DNA of 53,098 bases, from positions 1 through 53,098 of the forward strand of contig JAYOYH010000033.1 of the NCBI GenBank assembly GCA_038153405.1, read 5' to 3'. How positions within the stretch are numbered: the stretch's first letter is position 1; every line of letters begins with the position of its first letter. Shown here in pieces: positions 9,373 through 53,098 of this stretch. A program made the position numbers and the translations under genes. The notes beneath the pieces were generated by a model. That model had not been told where the DNA came from, did no database searches, and saw only the letters and a program-made list of their open reading frames with translations. The DNA comes from Gemmatimonadota bacterium (GTDB lineage Bacteria; Latescibacterota; UBA2968; UBA8231).

Positions 9373-9380
9373 GATCTTCC

Positions 9381-11489: not shown

Positions 11490-11533
11490 GGGAACGTCTC
11501 AGGCGGTGGAGTGAGCAGTCAATTTATTCATAA

Positions 11534-11562
11534 ATTGTATCATAAACATATAGATATGTCAA
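11534..11562 (-). promoter_or_regulatory. Near-consensus sigma70 promoter for ppk1
   Basis: Minus strand TTGACA-17 nt-TACAAT with an extended -10 TG, in an AT-rich intergenic region. Confidence 0.8.
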
Positions 11563-20886: not shown

Positions 20887-20898
20887 GGCGTTTTTTGT

Positions 20899-21720
20899 CT
20901 AGTTTAGCAGGCCCAAGCGCCCTGAAATAACGCGTATGTTTTGGCGTATTTCCTCGCCGTCATGCGGATCTTCGGCCCAGCGAAGGTACTGCTCAAACGC
21001 GGCGATCGATTTTCCGTATTCGTGCGCACGGTAGTAGAGGAAGCCCAGATCGCGATAGTTTTCCGCTTCGTTTGGCAATAGCCAAGAAATGCGCTCGCCG
21101 CAGCGCACGGCATTGCGCAGGCGGCGCTCGGCCACGTGAATGCGCTTGAGATTGCGCAGCATGCGCGCCAGGATGTCGCGCGACGATGCCGGCTCAATAT
21201 ACTCCTCGGCAAAGCGCAGCTGTGTGCCGTCGACTACGGGCAGGCGCTCGGCCAACTGCAGGCGATCGAGGCGCAGACCGCCGGCAAAGGGATCGATGAA
21301 GATGGGTTCGGGCGGTGCGTCACAGCGCACGAGAAAGTGGTAGGGAAAGTTGACTCCGGAAAGCGGCAGTCCGAGCCGTCGGCCGATCTCTATATAGACC
21401 AGCGATAGCGTAATGGGAATGCCGATGCGGCGGTCGATGACGGCATCGATATAGCTGTTGTGCGGATCGTCGTAGGCCTCTTGGTTGCCGCGAAACCCCA
21501 GTTCCCCGAATACATAAATGTTAAACGGATCTATGGCCTCTGCGGCCGATCGGCCCATGTTCTGCGCGGCAAAGTTGTCGGCCCACTGGTCTAAGACGCG
21601 CAGATAGTGGGCGCTGTCGAGGTCGGGGCGCGCTTCTCGGGCTATCAGCAGGGCGCCCTGTGCCAGTTCTACCTCGCCTTGGGCAAAGGCGAAAAAGGGG
21701 TCTGTGCTCTGTGGGGACAT
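20899..21720 (-). CDS. SirB1/YchA family protein (transglutaminase-like domain plus TPR)
   Basis: 'GFRGNQEAYDDPHNS', 'RRIGIPITLS', 'GVNFPYHFL', 'IDPF', 'RMLRNLK'. Confidence 0.9.
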   Translation of the reverse strand: MSPQSTDPFFAFAQGEVELAQGALLIAREARPDLDSAHYLRVLDQWADNFAAQNMGRSAAEAIDPFNIYVFGELGFRGNQEAYDDPHNSYIDAVIDRRIGIPITLSLVYIEIGRRLGLPLSGVNFPYHFLVRCDAPPEPIFIDPFAGGLRLDRLQLAERLPVVDGTQLRFAEEYIEPASSRDILARMLRNLKRIHVAERRLRNAVRCGERISWLLPNEAENYRDLGFLYYRAHEYGKSIAAFEQYLRWAEDPHDGEEIRQNIRVISGRLGLLN

Positions 21721-21784
21721 GAGCTGTGGCCTTCCCTACCTAAAGCGTCGCTGCTGGCCACCGGGCCCAGCAGGGCTCACTAAG

Positions 21785-22774
21785 CTACACCGCGCGATCG
21801 TATATCCAGCTGAAGCTCAGGGATGTGCTCTGGTCCAATTTGCGCTGTGAGCGCTCGGCCAAACGCGCGTAGCGCGGGCCGAGAGTACAGAGAAAGTCCT
21901 GGGCTTCGGCCGCTTCGGCGGATAGGCCGGTGCGGGTTGAAACCGACCACGTTCCGACCAGATGGTCTATGATCTCGGCGTAGTGCTGAGCGGTGTATAC
22001 GCCGATGCGCTGTGCGACGATAGAGAAGTGGTCGAATAGGTCGGGGTCTTTACCGTCGTACATCAGGTGAGCGGGCATGACGATTTGGTTTCTCATCAGA
22101 TCGCGGAAGGCGATAATGGCACCGCTGGGATCGACGTCAAAGATGTGCGAAACAAAGGCGGTATAGGCCTTTTCATGGCGGGCTTCGTCGCCGGCTACAA
22201 TGCCGCAGATCGTCTTTAGATGGTCGTCGCCAGCGTGCTGAGCTAGTCGCGCGACATTGCGGTGCGATATGCGCGTGGCGCGCTCTTGGAACGAAGTGTA
22301 GACAAAGCCCTTGTAGGGGTCCTGATGTGCGCCGGGGTCAAAGCCGTTGCGGATCAGGTACTGGATGGTCACTTCGACCGCGCGCATATCGACGCGCCCG
22401 GTCAGGTAGAGGTATCGGTTGAGCAGATCGCCGTGGCGGTTTTCTTCGGCGGTCCAGCCGCGCGACCAGCGCGCCCAAGGGCTGTCGCTGGTCCCCGTCG
22501 TGTCGGAAACGCCGTCGAAGCTGTTGAGCAGCGTCTGATAGGTTGGCAGGGCTTCTTCCGTGACCATATCGCCGACCAGCACGACGAGCACGTCGTCTGG
22601 TATGGCGGCGGCGGCGGCGCGAAAATCCTCCAGGGATTCCCGCCAGCCCTCGCTGGTCATGTCGGGGAGAAAATCGTTGGGTTGCCAGCTATCCTCGACG
22701 GATTTGAGCATGGGGAGCTGACCCTCGACAAAATCCTCCATATCGGCGATAACTTCTAGCTTATTCGGCTGCAC
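21785..22774 (-). CDS. Soluble di-iron acyl-ACP desaturase (plant FAB2/mycobacterial DesA-like)
   Basis: 'WQPNDFLPD', 'TEEALPTY', 'WTAEENRHG', 'FQERAT', 'GDEARHE'. Confidence 0.93.
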   Translation of the reverse strand: MQPNKLEVIADMEDFVEGQLPMLKSVEDSWQPNDFLPDMTSEGWRESLEDFRAAAAAIPDDVLVVLVGDMVTEEALPTYQTLLNSFDGVSDTTGTSDSPWARWSRGWTAEENRHGDLLNRYLYLTGRVDMRAVEVTIQYLIRNGFDPGAHQDPYKGFVYTSFQERATRISHRNVARLAQHAGDDHLKTICGIVAGDEARHEKAYTAFVSHIFDVDPSGAIIAFRDLMRNQIVMPAHLMYDGKDPDLFDHFSIVAQRIGVYTAQHYAEIIDHLVGTWSVSTRTGLSAEAAEAQDFLCTLGPRYARLAERSQRKLDQSTSLSFSWIYDRAV

Positions 22775-38690: not shown

Positions 38691-39647
38691 TTAAGGCGCG
38701 TATACGGTGAATCCAACCGAATCGACTGCCGCAGAGGCGAAAAAGCCTATGCCCCCATCTACATTGAAGCGGGGACGTTGAAACTGATCTCCGAGCAGGC
38801 CACCGCCGCCGCCGCCGCCGTCGCTGTCGGGGTCGGTGCGGATAAAGTCGTACCAGTTTTTATCTAAGGCGTATATCAGAAACTTGTGGCGTCCTTCAAA
38901 GGCGATGCCAAACCAGGGCAAACGCGCGTTTCCATCGCTGATGGCCAGAGGAGGCGACGCGCCCGATCGGTCAAACTCTGCCAGATCGTCTTCTTCTAAG
39001 AAATCGGCTTCAATCAGCAGCGGTGAATCCTCTTCCAGATTGAAAATGGCCAATTGGTAGGCATCGATATCGTTTGCGCTGAGGCGCACTTCGAGCAGAC
39101 CTTGGCGATAGGGTACCTGATTTGTCTGCGCCTCGTAAACGCCGTCTCCCAGTTCGGAAAATAGCGCCAGCTGGCTGTCGACTTGCAGCGTTTCCTCGTC
39201 GAGGAGGAGAAAGCGCTCTACCCTAATGCGCTGTGGCGTGGTTGTTTGCGCGCGCAGAACCTGGCCATCGGGCGTGCTGGCCTCGAGTTCATACAGGCGC
39301 TGCGGCTCGACCATGGGGGCATCGGCCGGCGGCAGGTAGCGCCCCAGCGAATCGGGGTCCGGCGCGTAGCTATAGCTCTGATTGCCGCTGCGCACGACGA
39401 TCTGCGCGTCTACAATAGCCGCTGCTTCGGTCGAGTGCGCAGCGCCCGGTTCCAGCGTGCGCTTGAGAAAGAGGTCGGGTAGCGGTTGGTCGACGGTGAG
39501 GATGGCATCTATAACCAGCACGTCGGCCTCGCTGGGGCCGAAGAGTTCGCCCGGCTTGCGATCGGCCGAGCAGGCGGCTAGCAGTACTAGCAGTGCCCAG
39601 GTGGCACGCGTGCGCAATATGTGGGTTGGCGTATATCGCATGGACAT
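38691..39647 (-). CDS. DUF4249-like lipoprotein (TonB receptor partner)
   Basis: Lipobox LLAAC; C-terminal 'NVDGGIGFF'; start overlaps the receptor stop (TGATG). Confidence 0.78.
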   Translation of the reverse strand: MSMRYTPTHILRTRATWALLVLLAACSADRKPGELFGPSEADVLVIDAILTVDQPLPDLFLKRTLEPGAAHSTEAAAIVDAQIVVRSGNQSYSYAPDPDSLGRYLPPADAPMVEPQRLYELEASTPDGQVLRAQTTTPQRIRVERFLLLDEETLQVDSQLALFSELGDGVYEAQTNQVPYRQGLLEVRLSANDIDAYQLAIFNLEEDSPLLIEADFLEEDDLAEFDRSGASPPLAISDGNARLPWFGIAFEGRHKFLIYALDKNWYDFIRTDPDSDGGGGGGGLLGDQFQRPRFNVDGGIGFFASAAVDSVGFTVYAP

Positions 39648-41884
39648 CAGAAGGAAAAGTTGAGGCCAAACGTCGGTATGACGGGCAGCATTTTAACCAC
39701 TTCGGGCTCCGTGGCCAGATCTTCGGTATTGTACTGGACAAACCACTCGTTGCGCCGACTATAGACGTTGAAAATCTGCACAAAGGCCTCGGCATCTCTG
39801 CTCCATAGGGCAAAGGAGCGGCGCAGGCCGGCATCGATTCGGTGGTAGGGCAAAAGGCGGCCGCTGTTGCGCTCTGCCGGCAGGGCGCGATCCTCGAAAA
39901 TGCCCGTGGCCGGGTCGCGCAGTTGGTAGCGTGCGGCGGCCGGTGTAAAAGCCTGGCCGGTGCCGTAGACAAAACTCGTGCTGGCAATCCACTTGCCGAG
40001 CCGATAGGTGGCGGTGAAAGACGCGTCGTGGCGGCGGTCGTACTTGGGGGGAAAGGTGCGTCCTTCGTTGATTTCGGGGAAGGTGCGCCGCGTCCATCCC
40101 AGCGTATAGCCCAGCCAGCCGCGCAGCCGGCCCGTGCGCTTTTCCAAAAAGAGCTCTAACCCCGTCGCATAGCCGCTGCCGTCCGTCTTAAACACGTCGA
40201 TGGAGCGCGTCTGGTCACTGTCGGCGACGCTGTCGTTGTCGAGTAAGACCAGATTGTCGAGGTCGGTGTAATAGGCCTCGGCACTCAGCCGGTAGCGCTG
40301 CGAGGGCTCCCACTCCAAGCCCGTGACCAACTGCCACGAACGACCCGGTGTCACGCTCTCGTCCAGCGGCACCCAGAAGTCGCCGCCGCTAAAGCCTTCC
40401 GAAGTGACCAACTGCAAATATTGGTGGTAGAGGCCGCCGGCCAGCTTAAAGCGCCAGCCGGGCTGCAGCACTTGCGAAAGAGAAAAGCGCGGCTCCAATA
40501 CTGCGCGCGCCCCCTCGCTGAAGTAGCTAGAGCGCAGGCCAATGCGCAGGTCGGTGAGTGGGGTCATCTGCCAATCGTCCTGCGCGTAGGCCGATAGCAG
40601 AAGGGGGTTGGTATTGAGATCGAACTGTTGTTGGCGATTGAACGAAGAGGCGAAATCGAATGCGTAGTGACTCAGCTGCAAGCCGCTTTTAATCGTGTGG
40701 TTGGAGCCGGCAAAATAGTCGATGTCCGCTTTGAAGGACACGTCGCGGACCTGGTTGCCAAAGTCGATGGGCGTCTCAAAAAAGCTCAGCGCAATATCGC
40801 TCTTATACTCAGAGTAGAAGGCGGTGAAGCGACCAAAGAGCGTCGGCGTGAAAACGCGCTTCCAGCGCCCGCTCACGGCGCGATTGCCCCAGCGAATGTT
40901 GAAGTAGGTCTCCGCGTCGGGGTCGAGGGCAAAGTCGAGCAGGTCGCGCCCCCAATAGGCGCTGAGCACCATGGTGTCGTCATCGCCTAGCGTCCGGTGT
41001 ACCTTAAAATTGAAGTCGTAGAAATAGTAGTCGGGCACGTCGATGCCGTTTCTGCGCACGACGGCCAGCACCGGATCGAGGTAGGTGCGCCGCCCGGCCA
41101 GCAGCCACGAGCCATGCTCTATGGGGCCTTCGGCCAGCAAGCGGCCGGAGATCAGGCTGATGCCGCCGCGACCACTGACGCGGCGGCGGTTGCCCTCGAT
41201 GTTCTGCACGTCGAGCACGGCGCCGAGATTGCCTCCGTACTGAGCGGGATAAGCGCCCTTATAGAAGGTGATGTCTTTGATCGCATCCGGATTGAAGGTC
41301 GAGAAAAAGCCAAAGGCATGCGCCGGGTTGTAGAGCGGCACCTGGTCGAGCAGGATGCGCGTTTGATCGGGGCCGCCGCCGCGCACGTAGAGGCCGCTGC
41401 TAATATCGGAGGCCGACTGCACGCCGGGCAGGAGCTGCAGGCTGCGCAGGAGGTCAGGCTCGCCGATAGCCGGTAGGCGCTCTAGGGTCTTGGCCTGCAG
41501 TGCGGTTACGCTGGCCTGCTGGCGCAGTTCGTCCTGCAGGCGATCGGCTGTGACCACCGTTTCTTCCTCGATGCGGATCAATTCGCTCTGCAGCTCGATA
41601 TCGAGGCGGAGCTGTTGTCCTTGATCGAACTCGACGGTATCGCGCTGCACGCGGTAGCCAATGTAGGAAATCGTCAGCGCATGGCGTCCGGCTGGAATAT
41701 TCTGCACGGCGTAGTAGCCGTCGGCGTTGCTGAGTGCGCCCAGGCGGAGGCTGTCAAAGGAAACGGTTGCGTTGGGCAGGTTTTCGCCGTCTTCGGCGTC
41801 GCGCACAAAGCCGCTGAGCGTGGCTGCAAAAGACGGTTGGCACAGCGAAAGGAGAATCCAGAGGAGTTTACAGCAGGTGCGCAT
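39647..41884 (-). CDS. TonB-dependent receptor with N-terminal carboxypeptidase-regulatory-like domain
   Basis: 'LSGFVRDAEDGENL', plug 'LQLLPGV...YVRGG..DQ', 'KGAYPAQYGG', C-terminal Phe ('GLNFSF'); ATG 41884 overlaps the carH stop. Confidence 0.92.
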   Translation of the reverse strand: MRTCCKLLWILLSLCQPSFAATLSGFVRDAEDGENLPNATVSFDSLRLGALSNADGYYAVQNIPAGRHALTISYIGYRVQRDTVEFDQGQQLRLDIELQSELIRIEEETVVTADRLQDELRQQASVTALQAKTLERLPAIGEPDLLRSLQLLPGVQSASDISSGLYVRGGGPDQTRILLDQVPLYNPAHAFGFFSTFNPDAIKDITFYKGAYPAQYGGNLGAVLDVQNIEGNRRRVSGRGGISLISGRLLAEGPIEHGSWLLAGRRTYLDPVLAVVRRNGIDVPDYYFYDFNFKVHRTLGDDDTMVLSAYWGRDLLDFALDPDAETYFNIRWGNRAVSGRWKRVFTPTLFGRFTAFYSEYKSDIALSFFETPIDFGNQVRDVSFKADIDYFAGSNHTIKSGLQLSHYAFDFASSFNRQQQFDLNTNPLLLSAYAQDDWQMTPLTDLRIGLRSSYFSEGARAVLEPRFSLSQVLQPGWRFKLAGGLYHQYLQLVTSEGFSGGDFWVPLDESVTPGRSWQLVTGLEWEPSQRYRLSAEAYYTDLDNLVLLDNDSVADSDQTRSIDVFKTDGSGYATGLELFLEKRTGRLRGWLGYTLGWTRRTFPEINEGRTFPPKYDRRHDASFTATYRLGKWIASTSFVYGTGQAFTPAAARYQLRDPATGIFEDRALPAERNSGRLLPYHRIDAGLRRSFALWSRDAEAFVQIFNVYSRRNEWFVQYNTEDLATEPEVVKMLPVIPTFGLNFSF

Positions 41885-42840
41885 TATGCCGGGCTGAGCC
41901 TGATGGCCGAGAGCGTTGGTCGCAGCTGCAAGAACTCGTCGATATGGATAGCATTTATATGCTGCAACTGCGTTCGGCACTGCGTCGCACCGGCGCCGCC
42001 CGCTAGGATGATGGCACTGCTTCCCAAGCGCTGGCGCAGCTGGCGCAGCTCCTCTCCAAGGGCTTGTGCATCAATGGAGTAGACGATGCTCAGCGCGACG
42101 ACGCGCGCGCGCTGCCGAAAGGCAGCAGCGGCGATGTCGTCGGCGGCGATATTGCTGCCTAGGTAGGTGGTGCGCCAGCCCTCAGTGGCGGCGAGGGTGG
42201 CGACAAAGAGGGCGCCTAACTCGTGCATTTGCCCCAGCGGTGTAGCCACTAACAGGTGCGGTGCATCGTCGGGTACGCGCAGGGCCGAGCGAATAGTATC
42301 GATAAAGGACCGCACGACGACGGACGCTAAGTGCTCGCTAGCAATGCGCAGCGAGCCGTCTCTCCAGCGCTGGCCAATGGTGGCCATAAGCGGCTCTATG
42401 ACGTGCGAAATAAGGCGATTGTGATCGAATTGGAGCGCGGCCCGCTGCAGTTCGCCTTCAAGGGCCTGCGAGTCGAGCTGCTGCACGGCGTCCATACAGC
42501 GAGCCACAATGGCCTCGGACGATCCCGCCGAGTTGGGCGCATTGCGACCCGGTGCATCGCTGTCGGGTTGATTCGCAGCCGGTTCGGAACTCTCTGCTAC
42601 GAGCGCGCGCAGCTGCTCATCCGATAGGTGGGCAATCTGACCGATGGAGTGTCCGGCACGGGTCGACTGGCACAATAGCCTGAGGCGCACTATGTGGCCT
42701 TCGCTATAGAGGCGTTGCCCGCTGGCCGTGCGCTGGGGCGAAATGGCCGCATAGCGCTTTTCCCAAATGCGAATAACGTGTGCGGTGAGGCCCGTGCGCT
42801 GCGATGCAAGCCTAATAGGGTAAGTAAATGTATTGTCCAC
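41884..42840 (-). CDS. CarH/LitR-type MerR regulator with AdoB12-binding photosensory domain (copy 1)
   Basis: MerR 'IRIWEKRY...RLYS'; W-x9-EH (WRDGSLRIASEH); 'GQMHELG' B12 motif. GTG 42840 aligns with the start of copy 2. Confidence 0.88.
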   Translation of the reverse strand: MDNTFTYPIRLASQRTGLTAHVIRIWEKRYAAISPQRTASGQRLYSEGHIVRLRLLCQSTRAGHSIGQIAHLSDEQLRALVAESSEPAANQPDSDAPGRNAPNSAGSSEAIVARCMDAVQQLDSQALEGELQRAALQFDHNRLISHVIEPLMATIGQRWRDGSLRIASEHLASVVVRSFIDTIRSALRVPDDAPHLLVATPLGQMHELGALFVATLAATEGWRTTYLGSNIAADDIAAAAFRQRARVVALSIVYSIDAQALGEELRQLRQRLGSSAIILAGGAGATQCRTQLQHINAIHIDEFLQLRPTLSAIRLSPA

Positions 42841-42846
42841 AGGGGG

Positions 42847-42874
42847 AATATACCGGGTGTCGACCATTCGTCAA
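42847..42874 (-). promoter_or_regulatory. Sigma70 promoter with 11-bp-spaced TnGAC repeats (putative CarH operator), carH copy 1
   Basis: Minus strand TTGACG-aatgg-TCGACA-cccgg-TATATT, then 6 nt to the GTG. Confidence 0.6.
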
Positions 42875-42934
42875 CGCGAGAAACAGAAGTAGTTTTAATC
42901 CTGTAAGACGCCTAAAAATAGCGACATAAAATAG

Positions 42935-43717
42935 TTAAAGTAAGAAGGCGTGTAAGAAGGCGGCGTTGGCTACCAGCGGGGCTGGAGCGATGACGACTAC
43001 ATACATATAGAGTCGCTGCAGGCGTCGATCCCAGTGGCGTGGCTCTATGAGCAGGGCAAGGCCTTGGATAAGGAAGTACGCTGCCATGGGGCCGAAGTAG
43101 ACTGGGTGGCCCATGAGATAGTGTGGGACGGTCAGAATTAGCTCGTGCCAAATGCCCGAGGCGATAAAGGCGGCCAGCAGACCGAGGCGAGGGTAGCGCA
43201 TAAGGGGAGAGAAAAATATGTGGCGCAGCCACTCGCCGACCCAGCGGTTCCAGCAGCTGCCCCAAAAATGGGCCAGTGAACGAGCGAGCAGGGGGCTGTT
43301 GTGAACAGGGCAGATAAGGCGTCCGCTGCTGAGAAAAATAAGGCGGAAAACAGCCCCCATGGTTTCGGTCAGCACATAAAAGGCTGGGAAGGCCATATAG
43401 GCGCGCACGAAGGGAGGCGGTGCAAAGCGACTGACGATATGCCAATAGAGGGCGTAGGTGCACAGGGATATGAGCAGCCACTGCAGGGCCGTGCGTCCGG
43501 CAAAGGTACAATGGCCGCTTTGCAGCGCAGGGCTACGCAGCCAAGAGCGCGGCGAATAGAAAGGCGCGAGAATGTAGAAGGCAACTTTTTGCGGTATGGG
43601 CAATCGGTAGATGATGCCGCCGATTACTTTGAGCGGTATACCCACCAGAAAATAGGCGGCTGCAAAAGCGAGCGCCCCTCCGATGCTGGGGGCAATGGGT
43701 AGGTGAGCGGTTTCCAT
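42935..43717 (-). CDS. MBOAT family (wax-synthase-like) membrane O-acyltransferase
   Basis: 'SLAHFWG..WN' and 'FIASGIWHE' (catalytic Asn/His motifs); multiple TM helices. Confidence 0.8.
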   Translation of the reverse strand: METAHLPIAPSIGGALAFAAAYFLVGIPLKVIGGIIYRLPIPQKVAFYILAPFYSPRSWLRSPALQSGHCTFAGRTALQWLLISLCTYALYWHIVSRFAPPPFVRAYMAFPAFYVLTETMGAVFRLIFLSSGRLICPVHNSPLLARSLAHFWGSCWNRWVGEWLRHIFFSPLMRYPRLGLLAAFIASGIWHELILTVPHYLMGHPVYFGPMAAYFLIQGLALLIEPRHWDRRLQRLYMYVVVIAPAPLVANAAFLHAFLL

Positions 43718-43772
43718 GGGGCTTAAATAAACGCAATAAAGGCGCGCAGAGAAAACCGCCCGCACCGGGCAC

Positions 43773-43813
43773 AAAAAAAACCGCCGGCGCAATGCCATGT
43801 GCGCCGGCGGTTT
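43773..43813 (-). terminator. Intrinsic terminator after the fasciclin gene
   Basis: Minus strand AAACCGCCGGCGCA-loop-TGCGCCGGCGG followed by T8. Confidence 0.88.
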
Positions 43814-43838
43814 CTGCGATGAAGAAGAGCGGGGTTGC

Positions 43839-44390
43839 TTAGCGGATGGCTTCGCTCTTTACTGCACCCCACGAGTTGTTTTCGACGGCAGTCGGACCGG
43901 CCGGCGGCAGCAAAACGGCATCGATGACGTGAATCACGCCGTTGCTGGCCAGAATGTCCACGGCCGTGACATTGGCGTTGTCGACCATGACGCCGGCATC
44001 GGAGGTCATGATGGTCACAGACGCGCCGTTTACTGTGGCGGCCGAGCTGAGGGTCACGACCTGATCCGAGGTAACGGCACTGGCGACGACGTGATACAAC
44101 AGGATAGAAACGAGCTGGTCTTTATTTTCAGGCAAGAGCAGAGACGCTACCGTACCTTCAGGCAGTTTGGCAAAAGCATCGTCGGTGGGAGCAAATACGG
44201 TGAAAGGCCCTTCGCTCTTCAGTACATCAATTAGGTCGGCAGCCGTCAGAGCAGCAGCCAGCGTATTGAAGGTTCCCGCTTCAACAGCAGTGTCGACGAT
44301 GTCCTTGTCGCTCTGAGCGCTGGCGGTATCGGCGGAGAAGCATAGGCCGGCAGCGACCATAGCGGTGAGGGCAAAGCGTGCGATTTTCAT
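43839..44390 (-). CDS. Secreted fasciclin (FAS1) domain protein
   Basis: Signal peptide; '[13 protein letters not shown]', 'LLYHVV', '[13 protein letters not shown]'; GGAG RBS. Confidence 0.93.
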
Positions 44391-44444
44391 GACAAGTCTC
44401 CGAGTTGTGCGCTTAGTGGCGCGTTGTTTAAGTTGCTTGTCAAG

Positions 44445-44483
44445 AGAATACTCAAGGTCTACCATTTGTCAATGTTTTGTCTA
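44445..44483 (-). promoter_or_regulatory. Fasciclin promoter overlapped by three 11-bp direct repeats (putative CarH operator)
   Basis: Minus strand TAGACAaaaca-TTGACAaatgg-TAGACCttgag-TATTCT; the middle repeat is the -35. Confidence 0.72.
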
Positions 44484-44491
44484 TAAAAAAA

Positions 44492-45430
44492 CTACAGTGT
44501 GGCTATTTTTTGCAGCAATTGTGCGAGAAGGGCCAGATTGTCTATGCGAAGGGCATCTATCTCATCTATAACGGCTTGGAAGTGTGGGGCCATGCGGCCG
44601 CCGATGAGCAGGGGGGTGTCGGGCAGCGCTTGCCGCAGTTTGGTCAATTCGCCGCGCAGCAGGGTGTCGTCTTCCAGATAAATGATACTGAGGGCCACGG
44701 CTTTGGCGGAGTGGGTTAGCGCCGCTGCGGCAATTTCCTCGGCCGGTAGGTTGGGACCCAGATAGAGCGTATTCCAGCCTGCACTTTGCGCGGTCAGGCT
44801 GGCCAATAAGGCGCCGACTTCGTGCCACTGTCCGGCCGGTGTTGTGCTGATGAGCAGAGGGGCGTTTGCGGGGGGCCGATTGGTCGAGTGTAGGGTGCCG
44901 AGGAACGTTCGAACGATCGAGGTCGCCAAGTGTTCGTCGGCTACGCGGAGGGTGCCGTCGCTCCACCTATCCCCGACTGCTCTCATCAGGGGATCAATTA
45001 CGTCGACCAGCAGGCGATTGCGCCCCATGGCGACTTCGGCCGCCATGAGCTCACGGGTGAGTTCATGGCCGTTCATGTCGGATACGGCGCGCAAGCAGCG
45101 CTGCACAAAATCGTGCGGTTGGCCCTCTGGCAGGGGCGGTTGGTCAGGCGATTGTTCCTGCATGGGGGTGGCGAGAGGACGCTCGGAGAGCAATTCCCTG
45201 AGGTCGGTGTCCGACAGGTGTGCTATGCTCCCTATGCTGTGGCCCTGTTGCGTCGCTCGGTGCAGATTGGCCAGGCGCTCTATATCGTCGCCCGAGTATA
45301 GCCTGCGGTTGGTGGCCGTGCGCTCCGGTGACACTGCGCCATAGCGCTTTTCCCAAACGCGAATGGCATGCGGACTCAGTCCGGTTCGCTGTGCGACCAT
45401 TTTCATGGCATATCGCTTCTCGCTTGTCAT
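44492..45430 (-). CDS. CarH/LitR-type MerR regulator with AdoB12-binding photosensory domain (copy 2)
   Basis: 'IRVWEKRY...RRLYS'; W-x9-EH (WSDGTLRVADEH); 'GQWHEVG'; 'YLGPNLP'. Confidence 0.9.
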   Translation of the reverse strand: MTSEKRYAMKMVAQRTGLSPHAIRVWEKRYGAVSPERTATNRRLYSGDDIERLANLHRATQQGHSIGSIAHLSDTDLRELLSERPLATPMQEQSPDQPPLPEGQPHDFVQRCLRAVSDMNGHELTRELMAAEVAMGRNRLLVDVIDPLMRAVGDRWSDGTLRVADEHLATSIVRTFLGTLHSTNRPPANAPLLISTTPAGQWHEVGALLASLTAQSAGWNTLYLGPNLPAEEIAAAALTHSAKAVALSIIYLEDDTLLRGELTKLRQALPDTPLLIGGRMAPHFQAVIDEIDALRIDNLALLAQLLQKIATL

Positions 45431-45436
45431 ATCGGA

Positions 45437-45531
45437 TTAATATGAATAGGTGGCTGACTTGTCAAACAAAAAACCGCAAAAATCGCAAATAAAACATTGA
45501 CAAAGATTAGACAATACTTTACCTTGTCTAA
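45437..45531. promoter_or_regulatory. Divergent sigma70 promoters (carH2 and sigma gene) with putative CarH operator
   Basis: Plus strand: TTGACA(45497)-17-TACCTT, TAGACA 11 bp after the -35, and palindrome TTAGACAA-N9-TTGTCTAA (45507-45531). Minus strand: TTGACA(45465)-17-TATTAA, then 6 nt to the carH2 ATG. Confidence 0.7.
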
Positions 45532-45577
45532 GTAAAGAGCGTTATAAATTAATTTGTCTACTTTTAGGAGGTGCGCG

Positions 45578-46432
45578 ATGCGCGATATCGAAAAGAATCA
45601 GAAAGGTGCGAAAAGCAGCGATATCCTTGATGTATATTGGGAAGAAATCAAAAACAACCAGCCGCTTAAACGACAGGAAGAAATTGAGCTGTTCGCGCGC
45701 ATTCGCCGCGGAGACAAAGTCGCTCTTGAGACTCTCGTCAACGCCAATCTGCGCTTCGTCGTCAGCGTTGCACGCGAATATTGTCCGCAGGATGGCCCCT
45801 TACTCATGGATCTGATCGCCGAGGGCAATATGGGGCTTATACGCGCCGTCAACAAGTTTGATGAGACGCGCGGTTTTAAGTTCATCACATACGCTGTGTG
45901 GTGGATTCGCCAAGCCATTCTCAAGGCACTGCCCCGCGATTTTCGCGCTGCGCGCCTGCCGATGAGTCACATTCACGACCAGCACGCCGTAGAACGCGAG
46001 ACCGCCAACTTAAGCCAGACCTTAGGGCGTCAGCCCACGCTATACGAGATCTCTGATTGCATGGATATGACCTCCGATCGCCTGCGCAATGCCATGGAGG
46101 CTGGGCTGCAGGATATGTCGCTCGACGCACCGCTGTTTGACGGCGAAGACACGCCCGCACTTGAGGCATTTGCCATGGGCGGAGACGATGTGGTCGTCGA
46201 TCAGGAGGAGCTTGTTGAAGTGCTCAGCGAGAGCCTGCGCAAGCTCGAACCGCGCGAGATGCAGATTATCAGCGAGTACTTTGGTTTGCAAAGTGGAAGC
46301 TGCAAAACGTTGGAGGAAATTGGCAGCGAAATGGGTGTAACGCGCGAACGCGTTCGCCAGCTGCGCAACCGCGCGCTGCAGAAGATGCGCAGCCACCTAG
46401 AAGAGCTAGAATTCGAAGTGTCGGCGAATTAA
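45578..46432 (+). CDS. RpoD/SigA-family sigma70 factor lacking region 1.1
   Basis: Region 1.2 'LDVYWEEI...L..EE', region 2 'NLRFVVSVA...DLIAEGN.GL...YAVWWIRQAI', region 4 'TLEEIG..GVTRERVRQ'; AGGAGG RBS. Confidence 0.93.
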   Translation: MRDIEKNQKGAKSSDILDVYWEEIKNNQPLKRQEEIELFARIRRGDKVALETLVNANLRFVVSVAREYCPQDGPLLMDLIAEGNMGLIRAVNKFDETRGFKFITYAVWWIRQAILKALPRDFRAARLPMSHIHDQHAVERETANLSQTLGRQPTLYEISDCMDMTSDRLRNAMEAGLQDMSLDAPLFDGEDTPALEAFAMGGDDVVVDQEELVEVLSESLRKLEPREMQIISEYFGLQSGSCKTLEEIGSEMGVTRERVRQLRNRALQKMRSHLEELEFEVSAN

Positions 46433-46443
46433 ATCGGGCGCAA

Positions 46444-47022
46444 TTGAACGGTCTATTTGCACGGCTAGCTGGGGTCGCGGTGCTATGCGCCGCAGTGGCA
46501 ATAACTGCACAGGAGGAGAGGGCAGTGACGTATCAGGAGGCCCTGCAGCGCACGGCGCATGCAGCCCAGCAAGCGCCGGTACCCGGCAGCGAAGCCGAGG
46601 CGCGCGCCACGGCTGCATTCACCGACTTTGTTCGCCAGATGCGCGCTGAGTCCATTGCGGCCCACGCGCGCCGCGTTTACGCCGAAGATGCTTACTTCAA
46701 CGATACGGTAAAAGAAATCGAAGGCAGCGAAGCGATCGCCGAATACTTGGCCGAGAGCCTAGGGGCGACAGAAGAGGTCAATGTCGAAGTGGTTGACGTG
46801 GTCCGTTCCGGCATGGACTTCTACTACCGCTGGGTGATGGACATCAAGTTTCGCAGTCTAAATGGCGGCAATTGGGCGCGCTCAGAGGGCATGAGCCAAG
46901 TTCGCTTTAATGGCGAGGGGCGCGTCGTCTTGCACCGGGACTTTTGGGATGCGGCAGGCGGACTCTTTGCCTACATGCCGGTCGTTGGCTGGCTAATCAA
47001 GTGGATCAAGGGGCGCATTTGA
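46444..47022 (+). CDS. SnoaL-like/NTF2 family protein with N-terminal signal peptide
   Basis: 'VYAEDAYFND', 'G.S.VRFN.EG.V..HRDFWDAA'; typical of photolyase/cfa neighbourhoods. Confidence 0.8.
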   Translation: MNGLFARLAGVAVLCAAVAITAQEERAVTYQEALQRTAHAAQQAPVPGSEAEARATAAFTDFVRQMRAESIAAHARRVYAEDAYFNDTVKEIEGSEAIAEYLAESLGATEEVNVEVVDVVRSGMDFYYRWVMDIKFRSLNGGNWARSEGMSQVRFNGEGRVVLHRDFWDAAGGLFAYMPVVGWLIKWIKGRI

Positions 47023-48440
47023 CATCGGCCTGCGCCATCGTCTGGCTGCGTCGCGACCTGCGCTTGAGCGACCACGCAGCTTTGGCCGAGGCGTCTGCGC
47101 GCGGTCGGGCTATTTTACCCGTATACATAGACGATCCCGACGAAGAAGGCCCGTGGCCGCAGGGCGCAGCCAGCCGCTGGTGGTTGCACCACTCGCTTAA
47201 ATCACTGGACGCCGACCTGCGCGCGCGCGGCAGTCGGCTGCTGTTGTACAGGGGACGGGCCGTCGAGGTGTTGGTAGATTTAGCGCGCGACTCGGGTGCG
47301 GACAGCATCTATTTTCAACGCCGCACTGAGCCTGCGGCGCGCGCCAACGAGGAGCGCGTCGAGCGCGCGCTGGCATCGGCCGCTATCACCGGGCATGCGC
47401 ACGACGGTTGGCTGCTCTTTGAGCCGCACTCCATTGCCACAGGGCAGGGCCGTCCGTATCAGGTGTTTACCCCCTTTTGGAAGCGCTGTCTGCAGGAAGG
47501 GCTCGACGATCAACTCGCTCAAGTGCCTTCGGCATTGCCGGCGCCCAATCGCTGGCCCAATTCGCTCTCCCTAAACGAACTGCAGTTGCTGCCCTCCATC
47601 GACTGGGACGGCGGTCTGCGCGCAGAATGGCAGCCGGGTGAAGCGGGAGGGCAGAAGCTGCTGCAGCGCTTTGTCGGGGAAGTCGTCGATCGCTATGGCG
47701 AAGGGCGCGACTGCCCTTCCGAGCGCTGGACGTCGCGGCTGTCGCCGCATCTGCACTTTGGCGAGATCAGCCCGCGCCAGGCGGTGTCCGCCCTGCGCGA
47801 TGTGGCCGGCGAGGGCGCCGCCGCTTTTTTGCGCGAGCTGGGTTGGCGCGAATTCTCCCATCATTTGCTCTATCACTTTCCGCACTTAGACGCCGAGCCG
47901 CTGCGCCCGCAGTTTGCCGATTTCCCCTGGTGCGAAGACCCCGCTGGCCTGCGCGCCTGGCAGCGCGGCCGCACCGGCTATCCTTTGGTCGACGCCGGCC
48001 TGCGCCAGCTGTGGCAGACGGGGTGGATGCACAATCGCGTGCGCATGGTCGCTGCTTCGTTCCTAGTGAAAGACCTGTTGATAGACTGGCGTCGCGGTGC
48101 TGAGTGGTTCTGGGATACGCTGGTCGATGCCGACCTGGCCAACAACAGCATGGGTTGGCAGTGGGTAGCCGGATGCGGCGCCGATGCAGCGCCCTTTTTT
48201 CGCATTTTTAACCCCGTTACGCAGGGGGAGAAATTCGACCGCGAAGGGACCTACGTCCGCCGCTGGGTGCCCGAGTTGGCGCAGCTGCCCTCGCGCTACA
48301 TTCACGCGCCCTGGCGCGCGCCAGACCACGTGCTGCGCGCGGCTGGGGTCCTGCTTGGACAAACCTATCCCGAACCGATTGTCGATCATGCCTTTGCGCG
48401 CGACCGCGCGCTGGCCGCCCTGCAAAAGAGCAAGGGCTGA
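47019..48440 (+). CDS. phrB: Deoxyribodipyrimidine (CPD) photolyase
   Basis: 'WLRRDLRLSDH', 'TSRLSPHLHFGEIS', 'WQTGWMHNRVRM', 'DADLANN..GWQW', 'FRIFNP'; TTG start overlaps the upstream TGA. Confidence 0.95.
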   Translation: MTSACAIVWLRRDLRLSDHAALAEASARGRAILPVYIDDPDEEGPWPQGAASRWWLHHSLKSLDADLRARGSRLLLYRGRAVEVLVDLARDSGADSIYFQRRTEPAARANEERVERALASAAITGHAHDGWLLFEPHSIATGQGRPYQVFTPFWKRCLQEGLDDQLAQVPSALPAPNRWPNSLSLNELQLLPSIDWDGGLRAEWQPGEAGGQKLLQRFVGEVVDRYGEGRDCPSERWTSRLSPHLHFGEISPRQAVSALRDVAGEGAAAFLRELGWREFSHHLLYHFPHLDAEPLRPQFADFPWCEDPAGLRAWQRGRTGYPLVDAGLRQLWQTGWMHNRVRMVAASFLVKDLLIDWRRGAEWFWDTLVDADLANNSMGWQWVAGCGADAAPFFRIFNPVTQGEKFDREGTYVRRWVPELAQLPSRYIHAPWRAPDHVLRAAGVLLGQTYPEPIVDHAFARDRALAALQKSKG

Positions 48441-48443
48441 GGC

Positions 48444-48863
48444 ATGCTGCTCCTGCTGCACGCGGCGGCGACCTGCTATATGTGCGGGGTGATATGGTTT
48501 GTGCAGTTGGTGCACTATCCGCTATTTGCCAGCGTCGAACGGGGTCACTTTATCGCCTACCAGCGCGAGCACGTGCGGCGCACGGGATGGGTAGTCGGAC
48601 CGGCGATGCTGGCAGAAGGTGCGTCAGCGCTGGCGCTGTGCCTGCTTGCGCCAGACGGGCTATCGCCGCTCGCGGCCTGGGGCGGATTGGCCCTGTTGGC
48701 GGTCATATGGCTGTCGACGTTCTTCTGGCAGGTGCCCAGTCACAACGCGCTGCTAAACGGTTTTGACGCGGAGCGGCACGCCTGGTTGGTGCGCAGCAAC
48801 TGGGTTCGCACCGTTCTGTGGAGTGCGCGCGCTGTGCTGGCCCTTGCCTATTTGCCCTCTTAG
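48444..48863 (+). CDS. Small four-TM hypothetical membrane protein
   Basis: 'GVIWFVQLVHYPLF', 'QVPSH..L', 'NWVRT.LW'; starts 3 nt after the photolyase. Confidence 0.75.
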   Translation: MLLLLHAAATCYMCGVIWFVQLVHYPLFASVERGHFIAYQREHVRRTGWVVGPAMLAEGASALALCLLAPDGLSPLAAWGGLALLAVIWLSTFFWQVPSHNALLNGFDAERHAWLVRSNWVRTVLWSARAVLALAYLPS

Positions 48864-49894
48864 GAGCGCTTGGCCATACAGTAGTGCGATACCCACCATT
48901 CCTGTCCCTCGTCATAGCCAAAGAGCTCTTCGCAGGACATAAAGAAAATGCGCCAGCGCTGGCACCAAATGGCGCTGTTGGCCGCGCCATAGGTCTCGGC
49001 AAATAGCGCTTCGATGGCGTTGCGCTGCGCGTCTAATTTTTCTAGCCAGTGGCGGGCCGTGCGCCCGTAGTGGCTGCCGCTGATCCGCCAGTGTCCCTGC
49101 AGAAAAAAATCTTCTTGTACGTAGTGCAGTAAGTCGTCGCTGGGCATCATTCCGCCAGTAAAGAAGTACTTGCTCATCCAGTCATCGTCGTTCTTAACCT
49201 CAAATAAATAGGGATGGCGGTTGTGGACGAAGATGTGGATAAAGAGCTTGCCGTCGTCGCGTAGCCAACCGGCGATGCGCTTGAGCATGGCGCGGTAGTT
49301 GCGCAGATGCTCAAACATCTCCACCGAAACGACGCGATCATAGGTACCTTCGGCTGTGAATTCGTTCATATCGCAGGTGATGATGCGCACGTTATCCAAC
49401 CCGCGCTCGGCGCAGCGCGCCTCGATAAAGTGGCGCTGTGGGGCCGAATTGGAAACGGCGGTAATGCGGCTAGCGGGATAGCGCTCGGCCATCCACAGCG
49501 TCAGTGAACCCCATCCACACCCCAGTTCGAGTACGTCCATCCCGTCGGTCAATTCGGCGCGCTCTCCGTAGAGTTCGAGCATAGCTGCTTCGGCTTCGTC
49601 TAGCGTCTCGCGTCCGGTCGGATAATAGCAGGCGCTGTATTTGAGATGGCGTCCCAGCACCTTTTCAAAAAAAGCCGGGGGCAACTCGTAGTGCTGTTCG
49701 TTGGCTTCGCGCGTGTGGAGGGCAATTGGGCTTTCGTCCATGGCTGCGATAAAGCGGTGTAAGTGCTGCGTGCGCGCCTGGCAGTCACCGGGGTCGATTT
49801 CGCGGATGCGATTGCGCAAGAGGGAGCGAATGCCCGTGCGGATCAGCGCGTCGGGCAATAGGCCGCGCTCGGCCCATTGCAGTGCGTGGTTCAT
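48860..49894 (-). CDS. Cyclopropane-fatty-acyl-phospholipid synthase family SAM methyltransferase (short, CNMT-like type)
   Basis: 'ANEQHYELP', 'KYS', 'LELGCGWGS', 'SVEMFEH', 'FFTGG.MPS'. Confidence 0.9.
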   Translation of the reverse strand: MNHALQWAERGLLPDALIRTGIRSLLRNRIREIDPGDCQARTQHLHRFIAAMDESPIALHTREANEQHYELPPAFFEKVLGRHLKYSACYYPTGRETLDEAEAAMLELYGERAELTDGMDVLELGCGWGSLTLWMAERYPASRITAVSNSAPQRHFIEARCAERGLDNVRIITCDMNEFTAEGTYDRVVSVEMFEHLRNYRAMLKRIAGWLRDDGKLFIHIFVHNRHPYLFEVKNDDDWMSKYFFTGGMMPSDDLLHYVQEDFFLQGHWRISGSHYGRTARHWLEKLDAQRNAIEALFAETYGAANSAIWCQRWRIFFMSCEELFGYDEGQEWWVSHYCMAKRS

Positions 49895-50715
49895 GGCGAG
49901 ACCTCTCGTGTACGGGCGTCTGCAGCCCGCTGGACGGGTTCTTTGGGAAAAAAGGGAAAGAAGGCGTGCGTTCGCTGCTGATAGGCGCGGTATTCATCGC
50001 CGCGACTCTGGACAGCGCGCTTTTCGGCGTAGGGAATGCCGGTGACGGAAAAGAGCAGGTAGAGCATGAGAGCCGGTGCCAGTAGGCTGAGCCAGCCCCA
50101 AGCGAAGGGGGTGGCCAGCGGCACGTAGGCAAACCAGTGCAGCCACTCAAAAAAGTAGTTGGGATGGCGCGAGTAGCGCCATAGGCCCTCGGCGCAGGTG
50201 TGGCCTGCGTTATTCGGGTCGCGGCGGAAACGCGCCAGTTGCGCATCGGCCAGGCTCTCGCCCGCCGTGGCCAGCAGCCAGATGCCGGCGGCGAGCGCGT
50301 CGAGTGCTCCCAGCGGTTTGGGGTTGGCCGCGCCGAGTAGAATGGGCAGCGAGAAGAAGGCGATCAGCAGCGCCTGCGCTTGGTAGAGCAGCAGGAAGTT
50401 GCGCTGTGCGTGCAGGCCCCACTGCTGGCGCAACATGGCGTAGCGCCCGTCTTCATGCGCGCCGCGGCGCGCGTGCAGATGCCAGGTCAGGCGCAGGGAC
50501 CACAGGGCGGCCAGCGCGCCGACGAGCAGGCGCCGCTGGGGATCGCCCTCGCTCTGCCAGGCCACATAGAGCGCCGTCAGGCCAATGCCGCTAGACCAGC
50601 CCATATCAACCGGCGTGGCGTCCAGCGTTTGCCGCTGGCGCGCGTAGAGTACTCCCATCAGCAGGGAGGCGCCGAGCAGGCCGTGCCACAGCAGGTGGAG
50701 ATCGTATGCTTCCAT
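49891..50715 (-). CDS. DUF1295 (steroid 5-alpha-reductase-like) membrane protein
   Basis: 'EDGRY', 'E.LADAQL..F', 'GLWRYSRHPNYFFEW', 'TGIP'. Confidence 0.92.
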   Translation of the reverse strand: MEAYDLHLLWHGLLGASLLMGVLYARQRQTLDATPVDMGWSSGIGLTALYVAWQSEGDPQRRLLVGALAALWSLRLTWHLHARRGAHEDGRYAMLRQQWGLHAQRNFLLLYQAQALLIAFFSLPILLGAANPKPLGALDALAAGIWLLATAGESLADAQLARFRRDPNNAGHTCAEGLWRYSRHPNYFFEWLHWFAYVPLATPFAWGWLSLLAPALMLYLLFSVTGIPYAEKRAVQSRGDEYRAYQQRTHAFFPFFPKEPVQRAADARTREVSP

Positions 50716-50733
50716 TGCGCGGCCGAGAGGCGC

Positions 50734-51999
50734 TCAGGCGAATTCGGCGTGGCGGCGGTTCTGCGGTTTGGCCAGCAGAATCTGCGCGTCGCCGATATAG
50801 CGCTCGGCAAAGCCGGCTTCGCAGTAGCAGAAGTAGAATGCCCACATGCGGATAAATTCTTCGTTGAACCCTTGCGCGCGCACTTGATCTAGGTGTTCGA
50901 AAAAACGCTCGCGCCAGGTGCGCAGCGTGCGCGCGTAGTGTGGGCCAATATCGCGCAGGTCGACGATGCGCAGATCCGTTTCGCGCGCCAGCGCCTGCGC
51001 CATGGCCGTGACCGAGGGTATGCAGGAACCGGGAAATATATAGCGTTTGATAAAGTCGACGGTGTGCGTATGCGCTTCGAAAAACCAATCGCCAATCGTA
51101 ATGGCCTGCAGCAGCATAAGTCCGTCGGGCTTGAGCAGGCGGCCGCACTGGCGAAAGTAGTCGTCGTAGTAGTGGTGGCCGACCGCTTCGATCATCTCGA
51201 TGGATACGAGCTTGTCGTACTGGCCCTGTAGATCGCGGTAGTCGGAGCGCAGCACCTCTATCTGGTCGGAGAGGCCCGCTTGGGCAATGCGCTCGACGGC
51301 CAGTTTGTGCTGCTCTTGCGAAATGGTCGTCGTAGTGATGCGACAGCCGTAGTTCTTGGCTGCGTGCAGGGCGAACCCACCCCAGCCCGTGCCAATTTCC
51401 AGCAGGTGGTCGTTCGGACCGAGTTCGAGCAGTTGGCAAATGCGCTCGACCTTGTGGTGCGAAGCCTCTTCCAGCGTGCTCTGCGGCGTGGGGAAAATAG
51501 CCGACGAATACATGAGATTATCGTCGAGAAAGAGGCGGAAGAATTCGTTGCCGAGATCGTAGTGCGCGGCGATGTTGCGCTGGCTGTTGGACGTGGTGTT
51601 GCGATGCAAAACGTGAAAGAGGTGATGGGCTGGTTTGGCCAGCCAGCCCCAGCCGCGCTCCATCTTGTCGCGCGCCTCGCCGTTTTGTACGACGATGCGA
51701 CACAGCGCGGTTAGGTCGTCCGTCTCCCACAGGCCGTCTATATAGGCCTCGGATGCGCCGAGACTACCGCCTAGGGCCATGTAGCGGTAAAAGCGCGGGT
51801 CGCACACGCGCAGACGGGCGTGCAGTGGATCGCCAGTGCGGCCAAATTCGAGCGTTTGTTCGCCGTCCTCGACGATAAGATAGCCTTTTGTGAAGCGCGC
51901 CAGCTTGGCCAATACCAATCGTCGGGCCCACGCGTTGGGAAGAGTGGTGGGCTGTGGGCGGGCTGCTTTCGGCGTCGTGTCCAGCGTCGTTTGGCTCAT
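50734..51999 (-). CDS. Cyclopropane-fatty-acyl-phospholipid synthase family methyltransferase (Cfa/UfaM-like)
   Basis: 'NIAAHYDLGNEFF', 'MYSSA', 'LEIGTGWGG', 'SIEMIEAVG', 'FIKRYIFPG', 'YCEAGF'. Confidence 0.93.
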   Translation of the reverse strand: MSQTTLDTTPKAARPQPTTLPNAWARRLVLAKLARFTKGYLIVEDGEQTLEFGRTGDPLHARLRVCDPRFYRYMALGGSLGASEAYIDGLWETDDLTALCRIVVQNGEARDKMERGWGWLAKPAHHLFHVLHRNTTSNSQRNIAAHYDLGNEFFRLFLDDNLMYSSAIFPTPQSTLEEASHHKVERICQLLELGPNDHLLEIGTGWGGFALHAAKNYGCRITTTTISQEQHKLAVERIAQAGLSDQIEVLRSDYRDLQGQYDKLVSIEMIEAVGHHYYDDYFRQCGRLLKPDGLMLLQAITIGDWFFEAHTHTVDFIKRYIFPGSCIPSVTAMAQALARETDLRIVDLRDIGPHYARTLRTWRERFFEHLDQVRAQGFNEEFIRMWAFYFCYCEAGFAERYIGDAQILLAKPQNRRHAEFA

Positions 52000-52008
52000 A
52001 GTACACCT

Positions 52009-52761
52009 CTACTCGGCGATGGATGGATGGGGATAAAAGGGGATGCGCTTCAACCACAGGCGCAGTGCCTGCCAGTATATGGCACCGGTGATGCGCGCCG
52101 TCATCAGCGGGTACTGTGCCAGCACGCGTGCCAGCGCGCGCGCGCTGATTTCCGTGCGCTGGAGATTCATCGTCGCGTCAAAGAGCGCCGCATTGCGCTC
52201 GCGGCTCTGCATGTGCACGCTCAGTTGGTGGGTCGGGGCAACAAAGTGCCAGGTATAGTGCTGATCCATACCCATAAAGGGCGACACGTGAAAGGCTTTG
52301 TCGAATTGGTAGCGCTTTTTACTCGCCCTGCCCTCGTTGTGCGCCTCGTCGAGCACGTAGGCGTGCTGCTCGCCCCATGGCGTGTTGTTGATTTCGGCTA
52401 TGATGGCTTCTAGTCCACCGTCTTCGCCGTAGCAGTAGTAGAAGCTGACGGGGTTGAAGCGGTAGCCGAAGTAGCGCATGTGCGTCAGCAGACACACCGG
52501 TCCAAGCGGGCGGCGGCCGCAGTCGGCTTCGACTAAATCGCGGGCGCTCTCCTGCAGGGGTTGGCGCGGATCGCCGATGTGGTCGGCGCGGCGAAACTGG
52601 GCCACGTTGGCACGGTGTGCTGACCACAGGCGGTAGCGGTCAAATAGATGCGGCAATTCGTCCAGATCGAGGTACATCATAAACAGGCGATAGCTGAAAG
52701 CGTGCTCGACGGGAAGAAAGCGGCGGTGGCGCACGCGCCCTTCGTAGATGCAGCTATGCAC
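52009..52761 (-). CDS. DUF1365 family protein (UfaO-like)
   Basis: 'HRRF.P..HAF.Y', 'FNPVSFYYC', 'EINNTPWGE', 'K.FHVSPF', 'IYWQALRLW'. Confidence 0.92.
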
Positions 52762-53098
52762 GAGCGGTCGCTCCTCGTTCTATAGCATCGGCTACCTCGA
52801 TGCCTGAGCGCGCTCCGTCTTCGTGAAAGCCGTAGCCCCAGTAGGCACCGCAGTAGTGCGTGCGCCGCACGCCGCTGATCTCGCCGCGCCGCTTCTGAGC
52901 GTCCAGTGCGCGTAGGTCGTATATCGGGTGGTGATAGGTCATGCGCTGCACGACGTGGCGCTCGTCAATTTCATCCTGGCGGTTGAGGCTGACGCAAAAG
53001 GGCAGCCGGCTGCTCAAGCTTTGCAGGATGTTCATATTGTAGGTGACCGTGGGGGCGCTGGACCCAGCTGCTGGTAGGTAGTAGTTCCAACTCGCCCA
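52754..53098 (-). CDS. FAD-dependent oxidoreductase (amine-oxidase family, UfaD-like), C-terminal part
   Basis: 'WASWNY', 'TYNMNILQ', 'VSLN', 'YHHP', '[14 protein letters not shown]'; 5' end outside the window. Confidence 0.88.

Follow-up and report, generated by a model that had tools for sequence, protein, structure and literature searches.

Tandem 11-bp repeats over a fasciclin and a sigma factor promoter as likely operators of adjacent CarH-family repressors in a Latescibacterota genome

CarH oligomers carrying adenosylcobalamin bind tandem 11-bp repeats that lie over the −35 or −10 element of a promoter and leave them in the light, according to the accessible parts of two reports (PMC9304148, PMC8156234), the first of which also indicates, in the same portions, that two tandem repeats suffice for the dimer of Cystobacter CarH. 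Here we describe a related locus from a Gemmatimonadota bacterium that is placed by GTDB in the Latescibacterota (GenBank assembly GCA_038153405.1; 4.86 Mb in 93 contigs, 93% complete, labelled G000 in our genome comparisons). The window, that is the whole stretch of DNA analysed, comprises 53,098 nucleotides of contig JAYOYH010000033.1. On its minus strand it encodes two CarH/LitR-family regulators, carH1 (41884–42840) and carH2 (44492–45430), together with a secreted single-domain fasciclin (FAS1) protein (43839–44390; Pfam PF02469), and on the plus strand, divergent from carH2, a sigma-70 factor operon whose first gene lies at 45578–46432. TnGACA repeats with an 11-bp period lie over the −35 elements of both the fasciclin and the sigma promoter. 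Since the repeats stand on both promoters and are conserved in related genomes, they are likely docking sites of the neighbouring B12 light-sensing repressor. We consider it probable, judging from the DNA and its comparison with relatives, that they are conserved sites bound by the adjacent CarH-family repressors, which would block transcription in the dark and release it in the light.

The fasciclin operator (44456–44483, minus strand) contains three repeats, TAGACA (44483–44478), TTGACA (44472–44467) and TAGACC (44461–44456), the middle one of which is the promoter −35. A −10 element, TATTCT (44445–44450), predicted by a consensus scan, follows after a 16-nt spacer and is in register with the repeats. 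Phylogenetic footprinting made use of the window and of five of the seven same-genus genomes searched, in which both carH paralogues are present in the same order, giving six genomes in total. TnGAC is kept at the upstream repeat and at the −35 in all six and at the spacer repeat in four, and TAnnnT occurs at the −10 offset in every one. One base past the −10 is an extra TTGACA (44438–44443, minus strand), a possible auxiliary site absent from the first-pass annotation of this DNA; it is a full TnGAC in one genome of the six and nnnAC in three. The position just past the −10 is also occupied at some distant carH loci and at a second fasciclin gene in genome G005; the promoter of that gene carries one repeat pair at the −35 and another immediately beyond the −10.

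At the sigma promoter the operator (45497–45513, plus strand) consists of TTGACA, which is the −35, and TAGACA 11 bp further on, within the spacer. Both hexamers are unchanged in 6/6 genus genomes while the adjacent spacer bases vary, and the predicted −10, TACCTT (45520–45525, 17-nt spacer), retains TAnnnT at the same offset throughout. No repeat is found at −11 or +22 in any of the six. An operator over the sigma promoter is also present in G011, outside the six genus members. Measured against the consensus nnnnTnnACAn, the fasciclin site has two perfect repeats and one pseudo-repeat, the sigma site two perfect repeats, and the carH1 promoter one perfect repeat and one pseudo-repeat. In every operator one repeat is the −35, followed at 16 or 17 nt by a −10 that is conserved in all six genomes.

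The first-pass annotation had proposed these operators from three promoter strings, and all three are exactly where it placed them; the two words that it described as shared between promoters, AAAACATTGACAAAnnnTAGAC and TTGACnAATGGTnGAC, have exactly two occurrences apiece across the assembly, solely at these sites. Its −10 boxes also hold up, with TAnnnT at the same spacing in all three promoters of the six genomes. It had further allowed that a second TnGAC might be equally common at unrelated promoters, and this is not borne out. Among 234 candidate promoters, defined as an intergenic TTGACn followed after 16–18 nt by TAnnnT and lying upstream of a crudely called gene (3857 genes), TnGAC recurs 11 bp past the −35 in 3/3 at this locus and in 2/231 elsewhere (Fisher p = 5e-6, in a post hoc test). 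At 1018 other intergenic TTGAC sequences, TnGAC occurs at +11 in three, which is inside the range of 0–8 found at other offsets. The p value is post hoc because the motif was derived from these very sites, and independent evidence was therefore sought, in the footprinting and in 75 distant carH loci.

The distant set comprised the best 80 of at least 586 confirmed loci and carried about 15 phylum labels. For the spacing analysis one same-genus duplicate, two near-duplicates and two loci with short upstream DNA were left out. Direct TnGAC pairs at an offset of 11 are found upstream of 34 of these 75 carH homologues, against 5.5 expected from random repositioning of these sites within 150 nt, and none of 2000 such draws was as high. 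A harmonic at offset 22 is present in 11 of the 75 (p = 0.011), and control loci with weak matches have offset 11 in 2/18, with no peak. The distant loci are not independent of one another, because about 35 are Verrucomicrobiota. A further peak, at 30 bp, occurs at 13 of the 75 (null 4.8; p = 0.0005 before correction for about 55 offsets). As a second period it was rejected: a −10-like nAnnnT stands one base before the second site in 8/15 of the 30-bp pairs versus 7/58 of those at other offsets, and the peak is therefore taken to reflect, for the most part, a −35 accompanied by a site immediately beyond the −10.

A matrix trained on 57 sites in 34 of the distant loci only, and scanned across 9.7 million positions, gives the highest score genome-wide to the fasciclin pair (26.1 bits), the next highest to the sigma pair (25.2 bits) and the seventh highest to the second fasciclin pair. 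Pairs upstream of rplM and of a gene on contig C11 were considered as further targets and rejected, being conserved in 2/6 and 1/5 genomes respectively. An M23 peptidase gene (G000:C8:81105) has TTGACG-N5-TTGACA upstream, possibly an extra target or a coincidence; TTGACG-N5-TT(G/T)ACA, with TnnACA at +11, is present in 5/6 of the CarH-bearing genomes, where the entire promoter is conserved, and the site is not recognisable in G003 or G007.

The two carH promoters differ from this pattern, and it is here that the first-pass reading of all three sites as CarH operators, including autoregulation, stands in part: it is well supported at the fasciclin and sigma promoters and weak at carH1, while carH2 is without a repeat. 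The carH1 promoter (42847–42874, minus strand) consists of TTGACG, a spacer of 16 nt and TATATT, and its transcript is probably leaderless, with a GTG at 42840. Its −35 and −10 are kept in 6/6 genomes. The second repeat, TCGACA (42863–42858), is weak, being a full TnGAC in 2/6 (G000 and G005, the most distant member) and nnnAC in 5/6, and the distant-loci matrix gives the site 9.2 bits, rank 143. The carH2 promoter (45437–45465, minus strand; −35 TTGACA at 45465–45460), divergent from the sigma promoter and probably also leaderless, has no tandem repeat in the source genome (matrix score −10), and among genus genomes a pair is found there in G005 only.

Both regulators have the domain make-up of CarH proteins. 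CarH2 (312 residues) is a MerR-type helix-turn-helix and B12-binding regulator, CarH1 is its paralogue at 44% identity, and Pfam identifies MerR_1, B12-binding_2 and B12-binding domains in each. Thermus thermophilus CarH is the best solved relative of both, matching CarH2 with E = 9e-28; an alignment-based model of CarH2 has a predicted local distance difference test score (pLDDT) of 91, and its top fold match is 5C8D (E = 5e-18). The Wx9EH motif is present in the two proteins as WSDGTLRVADEH and WRDGSLRIASEH, and the recognition helix RxWERRY takes its two most frequent forms in the 80 homologues, RVWEKRY and RIWEKRY. Of the D/ExHx2G-x41-SxT/V-x22-27-GG motif, both proteins keep the His, the Gly, x41, the Ser and the spacing to the GG, and both depart from it in having Gln at the D/E position, CarH2 also in having SII; the cobalt-ligating His is retained in both. 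CarH2 also has all four elements of the GxxW, EH, GxxH and GxxxP signature that the available sections of PMC11796333 define for light-responsive proteins. The genome encodes a PduO-type adenosyltransferase and three other B12-domain proteins; a CobA/BtuR-type adenosyltransferase was not found in it. The carH paralogues fall into two clades at the level of the genus, and a single copy is seen in other family members, so that the duplication looks recent on that scale. In the CarH tree the protein of a same-class relative groups with a record labelled Latescibacterota, which makes this placement of the lineage probable, although it is a single gene tree and the nearest records carry conflicting submitter labels.

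In the mechanism that we propose, adenosylcobalamin-bound oligomers of CarH1 or CarH2 would bind the repeats over the −35 and block RNA polymerase in the dark. As in other CarH proteins, light would break the Co–C bond, the oligomer would fall apart, and release of the promoters would induce the fasciclin gene and the sigma–SnoaL–photolyase operon. Repression would be strong at the fasciclin promoter through its three repeats; the sigma–photolyase operon would likewise be strongly repressed, through two, perhaps aided by a reverse site downstream, and two-repeat sites would suit dimer-type binding like that of Cystobacter CarH. carH1 and the transporter that follows it would be at most weakly or residually autoregulated, and carH2 not at all. 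Which paralogue occupies which site cannot be read from sequence.

Several observations weigh against this interpretation. The six footprinted genomes are relatives and do not count as independent; in each pair, one of the repeats coincides with the −35; and tetrameric CarH proteins need three or four tandem repeats, whereas three occur only at the fasciclin site. At the level of the proteins, the Glu of D/ExH is Gln in both (as it is in 56/80 homologues), and CarH1 has three of the four signature elements, with GSNIA lacking the Pro of GxxxP. The equivalent of T. thermophilus His132 is Ser or Arg (Arg in CarH1), His being found in 4/80 homologues, and the Arg176–Asp201 dimer pair of that protein is Trp/Asn or Met/Asn here. 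T. thermophilus CarH with the H132A substitution stays mostly tetrameric in the light, as far as the accessible text of PMC10442372 describes. The NCBIfam model NF052513 scores 122.5 and 101.4 bits, below its cut-off of 400, and is still the best NCBIfam match for both proteins. Neither His132 nor the Arg–Asp pair is universal in the CarH family, and CtMerR, with Arg at the His132 position, still monomerises in light, according to the parts of PMC11796333 available.

In the main alternative, the same proteins bind the same repeats and release does not come from direct B12 photolysis: as in CarA or class II LitR, the promoters would be freed by an anti-repressor or by some other cue, for instance oxidative stress or the availability of B12. 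The Gln for Glu and the missing His132 and Arg–Asp equivalents would suit it. So would the targets, which resemble those of the B12-independent class II LitR in including photolyase and furan-fatty-acid genes (PMC9758184), and the existence of two paralogues, comparable with CarH and CarA in Myxococcus. We nevertheless consider it unlikely. Both proteins keep Wx9EH, the Trp of which has been lost by CarA (PMC9304148, in its accessible part), and both have the full Rossmann B12 domain that class II proteins lack; moreover no LOV or CarS-like gene was found among the 30 window proteins scanned, the search being confined to the window.

A second alternative would have a dimer bind in the usual MerR manner, with an inverted repeat, TTAGACAA-N9-TTGTCTAA, as the true operator. 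The palindrome (45507–45531) and a further TGTCTA at 45555–45560 are both present, as the first-pass annotation had noted, and the palindrome is a perfect 8-bp repeat unique in the genome. Its right arm, a reverse TAGACA (45525–45530, minus strand), is lineage-specific; only G000 and G001, two of the six genomes, have the palindrome, and it was therefore rejected as operator core. It is absent at the fasciclin and carH1 promoters, and an inverted spacing of 17 is found in 1/78 distant loci, against 36 with the direct spacing of 11. The second reverse TAGACA (45555–45560, minus strand), ahead of the sigma ribosome-binding site, is better kept and is a predicted auxiliary site: TGTCYA occurs at +58 or +59 from the sigma −35 in all six genomes and is exact in five, with no conserved −10 downstream and no stable RNA fold (z = +1.05). 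Overall we regard an inverted-repeat operator as very improbable.

An equally faint prospect is that the second hexamer binds no repressor and is either an additional −35, read by the encoded sigma factor or belonging to a tandem promoter, or what a promoter duplication left behind. In its favour, TAGACA is one base off TTGACA, the carH region arose via tandem duplication in this genus and a flanking AAAACA is common to the two best sites. Against it, no conserved −10 follows the second hexamer, the hexamers are constant between genomes while their flanks vary, and the same spacing is seen again at carH loci, a sigma gene being nearby in only 13/80 of these.

Repression by CarH-family proteins remains our preferred reading, and its most distinctive predicted target is the sigma gene. 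This encodes an RpoD/RpoS-type factor of 284 residues with regions 2, 3 and 4, and it is likely co-transcribed with genes for a SnoaL-like protein, a DNA photolyase and a 139-residue membrane protein (46444–48863, plus strand), in an order also found in G001, G002, G004 and G005. An RpoD-type sigma gene is nearby at 13 of the 80 distant carH loci, back-to-back with carH in 11, and 8 of the 13 have an 11-bp TnGAC pair. The source genome has nine short (277–294 residues) RpoD-like sigma factors, on contigs C3, C6, C7, C14, C20, C31, C33 and C43, and in an unrooted tree three short RpoD-like sigmas form a divergent group with the CarH-linked one. No repeat pair was found upstream of the three closest paralogues (C14, C31 and C6; two checked in full, one in part). 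That this lineage and Verrucomicrobiota each recruited their sigma factors separately is not shown by the sigma tree, which has neither a root nor a Verrucomicrobial RpoD.

Convergent with the sigma operon is a second group of genes (48860–53098), identified through Pfam as two cyclopropane-synthase-type methyltransferases, DUF1295, DUF1365 and the end of a flavin adenine dinucleotide (FAD) oxidoreductase, and this FAD-oxidoreductase operon extends past the contig end. We take the set to resemble furan-fatty-acid and singlet-oxygen defence clusters. The desaturase and DUF2867 genes that lie upstream of the operon in relatives were not found in the source assembly. A repeat pair stands at the desaturase–FAD promoter in G002, G004 and G019; G005, from which the desaturase is missing, has one at the corresponding position, and G001 and G006 have none. 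In G002, G004 and G005 one pair lies between the divergent desaturase–FAD operon and the DUF2867 epimerase gene (L032 2480–2520, L034 11490–11540 and L036 3600–3670), and in G031 the desaturase directly follows carH. In six genomes that have no strong match to CarH, the DNA preceding the desaturase orthologue is free of the pair in every case. The first-pass claim that the shared operator defines the regulon was thus too broad, as the 5′ part of the desaturase–FAD operon is missing in the assembly and the repeat occurs in some relatives only. Two more fatty-acid desaturase genes, at 19327–22774 and some 20 kb away from the cluster, are not preceded by a repeat pair.

Gene loss in one relative ties several of these genes together. 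At the thresholds used, G003 and G007 have no match to the fasciclin or sigma genes. In G003 (contig C82, ~9100–11540) both carH genes and the fasciclin gene were lost together with most of the sigma and photolyase genes, which links them; relics persist as the 3′ end of carH1 (38% identity over 34 residues), a frameshifted sigma 3′ end and a fragment from the 3′ part of the photolyase gene. The transporter, MBOAT, SnoaL and desaturase–cyclopropane fatty acid genes are kept. G003 provides no test of operator decay, because the promoters went along with the genes. In two further family members, G023 and G010 (L040 and L041), a single carH is back-to-back with carotenoid genes, and in G010 a repeat pair is found upstream of phytoene desaturase. 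Phytoene synthase was not found in the source genome, at its 93% completeness.

The stop codon of carH1 overlaps the start of a TonB-dependent transporter gene, which with a DUF4249 lipoprotein gene (together 38691–41884, minus strand) forms a possible weak target. The pair follows carH in every genus member checked and in G010, G011, G019 and G023. DUF4249 proteins have been proposed as transporter lids in Bacteroides, in the available part of a preprint (bioRxiv 10.1101/2023.03.17.533168). B12 as the substrate of the pair is a guess on our part. The fasciclin gene is followed by an intrinsic-terminator-like hairpin and U run (43773–43813, minus strand; fold z = −2.94, with 2/200 shuffles equally good). 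Between this terminator and carH1 lies an MBOAT-family membrane acyltransferase gene (42935–43717), the upstream DNA of which has neither a repeat nor a clear promoter.

Transcripts of the region occur in RNA libraries labelled marine and freshwater; the data are assembled contigs only, from four runs of four studies, and their depth cannot rank genes. The contigs cover the fasciclin gene, with promoter-side ends at 44416–44435 (four runs) and terminator-side ends at 43814–43817 (three runs), and those of the sigma gene start at 45547 and 45551 (two runs). These ends fit transcription starts near 44438 and 45532 respectively, as a weak hint because contigs cannot show ends. Positions 44831–45317, within carH2, are covered by none of the four runs, which in data of this kind proves nothing.

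The switch itself belongs to the known CarH/LitR system, and the freshest point is the predicted step from CarH to an RpoD-type sigma factor rather than one of the extracytoplasmic function (ECF) class. A literature search, with most subscription journals outside its reach, returned no link between CarH and an RpoD-type sigma factor and no CarH paper on this lineage. We lean, by a small measure, towards a wider picture in which a widespread Gln-type CarH branch, found in this lineage and in Verrucomicrobiota, turns on an RpoD-type sigma factor in the light, with two diverged paralogues sharing the task and with fasciclin and TonB transporter–lid proteins, and no carotenoid genes, as outputs. 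If this is true, a B12 photoreceptor would reprogramme transcription beyond its own operators, through a housekeeping-type instead of an ECF sigma factor. The locus itself offers a clean operator consensus, TnGACA with a period of 11 bp, for this large Gln-type branch, which is unstudied and occurs in uncultured lineages, and two natural CarH variants that lack residues thought important for photo-release and are potential green-light tools.

Comparison with T. thermophilus CarH (class I LitR; PDB 5C8D, 5C8E and 3WHP) shows the same domain order, fold, Wx9EH motif and recognition helix. Its operator likewise consists of 11-bp direct repeats, nnnnTnnACAn, one of them at the −35, in the sections of PMC9304148 and PMC8156234 that are accessible. 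The proteins described here differ in having ~28% identity in the fold match, QxH for ExH, and neither His132 nor the Arg–Asp pair, and the system differs in its TnGACA core, its two-repeat sites at two promoters, its two paralogues and a phytoene synthase that was not found. The operators of Cystobacter and other myxobacterial CarH proteins, with one or two perfect repeats plus pseudo-repeats at divergent promoters, are similar; unlike the present case, the myxobacterial proteins control carotenoid genes, and Cystobacter CarH responds to the anti-repressor CarS (both points from the available portion of PMC9304148). The Trp of Wx9EH, whose loss is the hallmark of CarA, is kept in CarH1 and CarH2.

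The Pseudomonas class II LitR proteins PplR and PmlR resemble this system in a regulon that includes photolyase and fatty-acid-modifying methyltransferase neighbours, but they have no Rossmann B12 domain, a LOV anti-repressor and a TGTACA-N12-TGTACA site (PMC9758184). CtMerR of Chloracidobacterium thermophilum (PDB 8JBS), which the B12 domain matches with E = 2e-13, has Arg at the His132 position, like CarH1. Light-driven break-up of its tetramer has been demonstrated (PMC11796333, in the part available). The closest parallel in gene arrangement is Streptomyces LitR–LitS, where a B12 light repressor is divergent from a sigma gene that it controls; in the accessible text of the report on it (PMC11519972) LitS is an ECF sigma factor with its own promoter consensus, whereas the factor predicted to be controlled here is of the RpoD/RpoS type and includes region 3.

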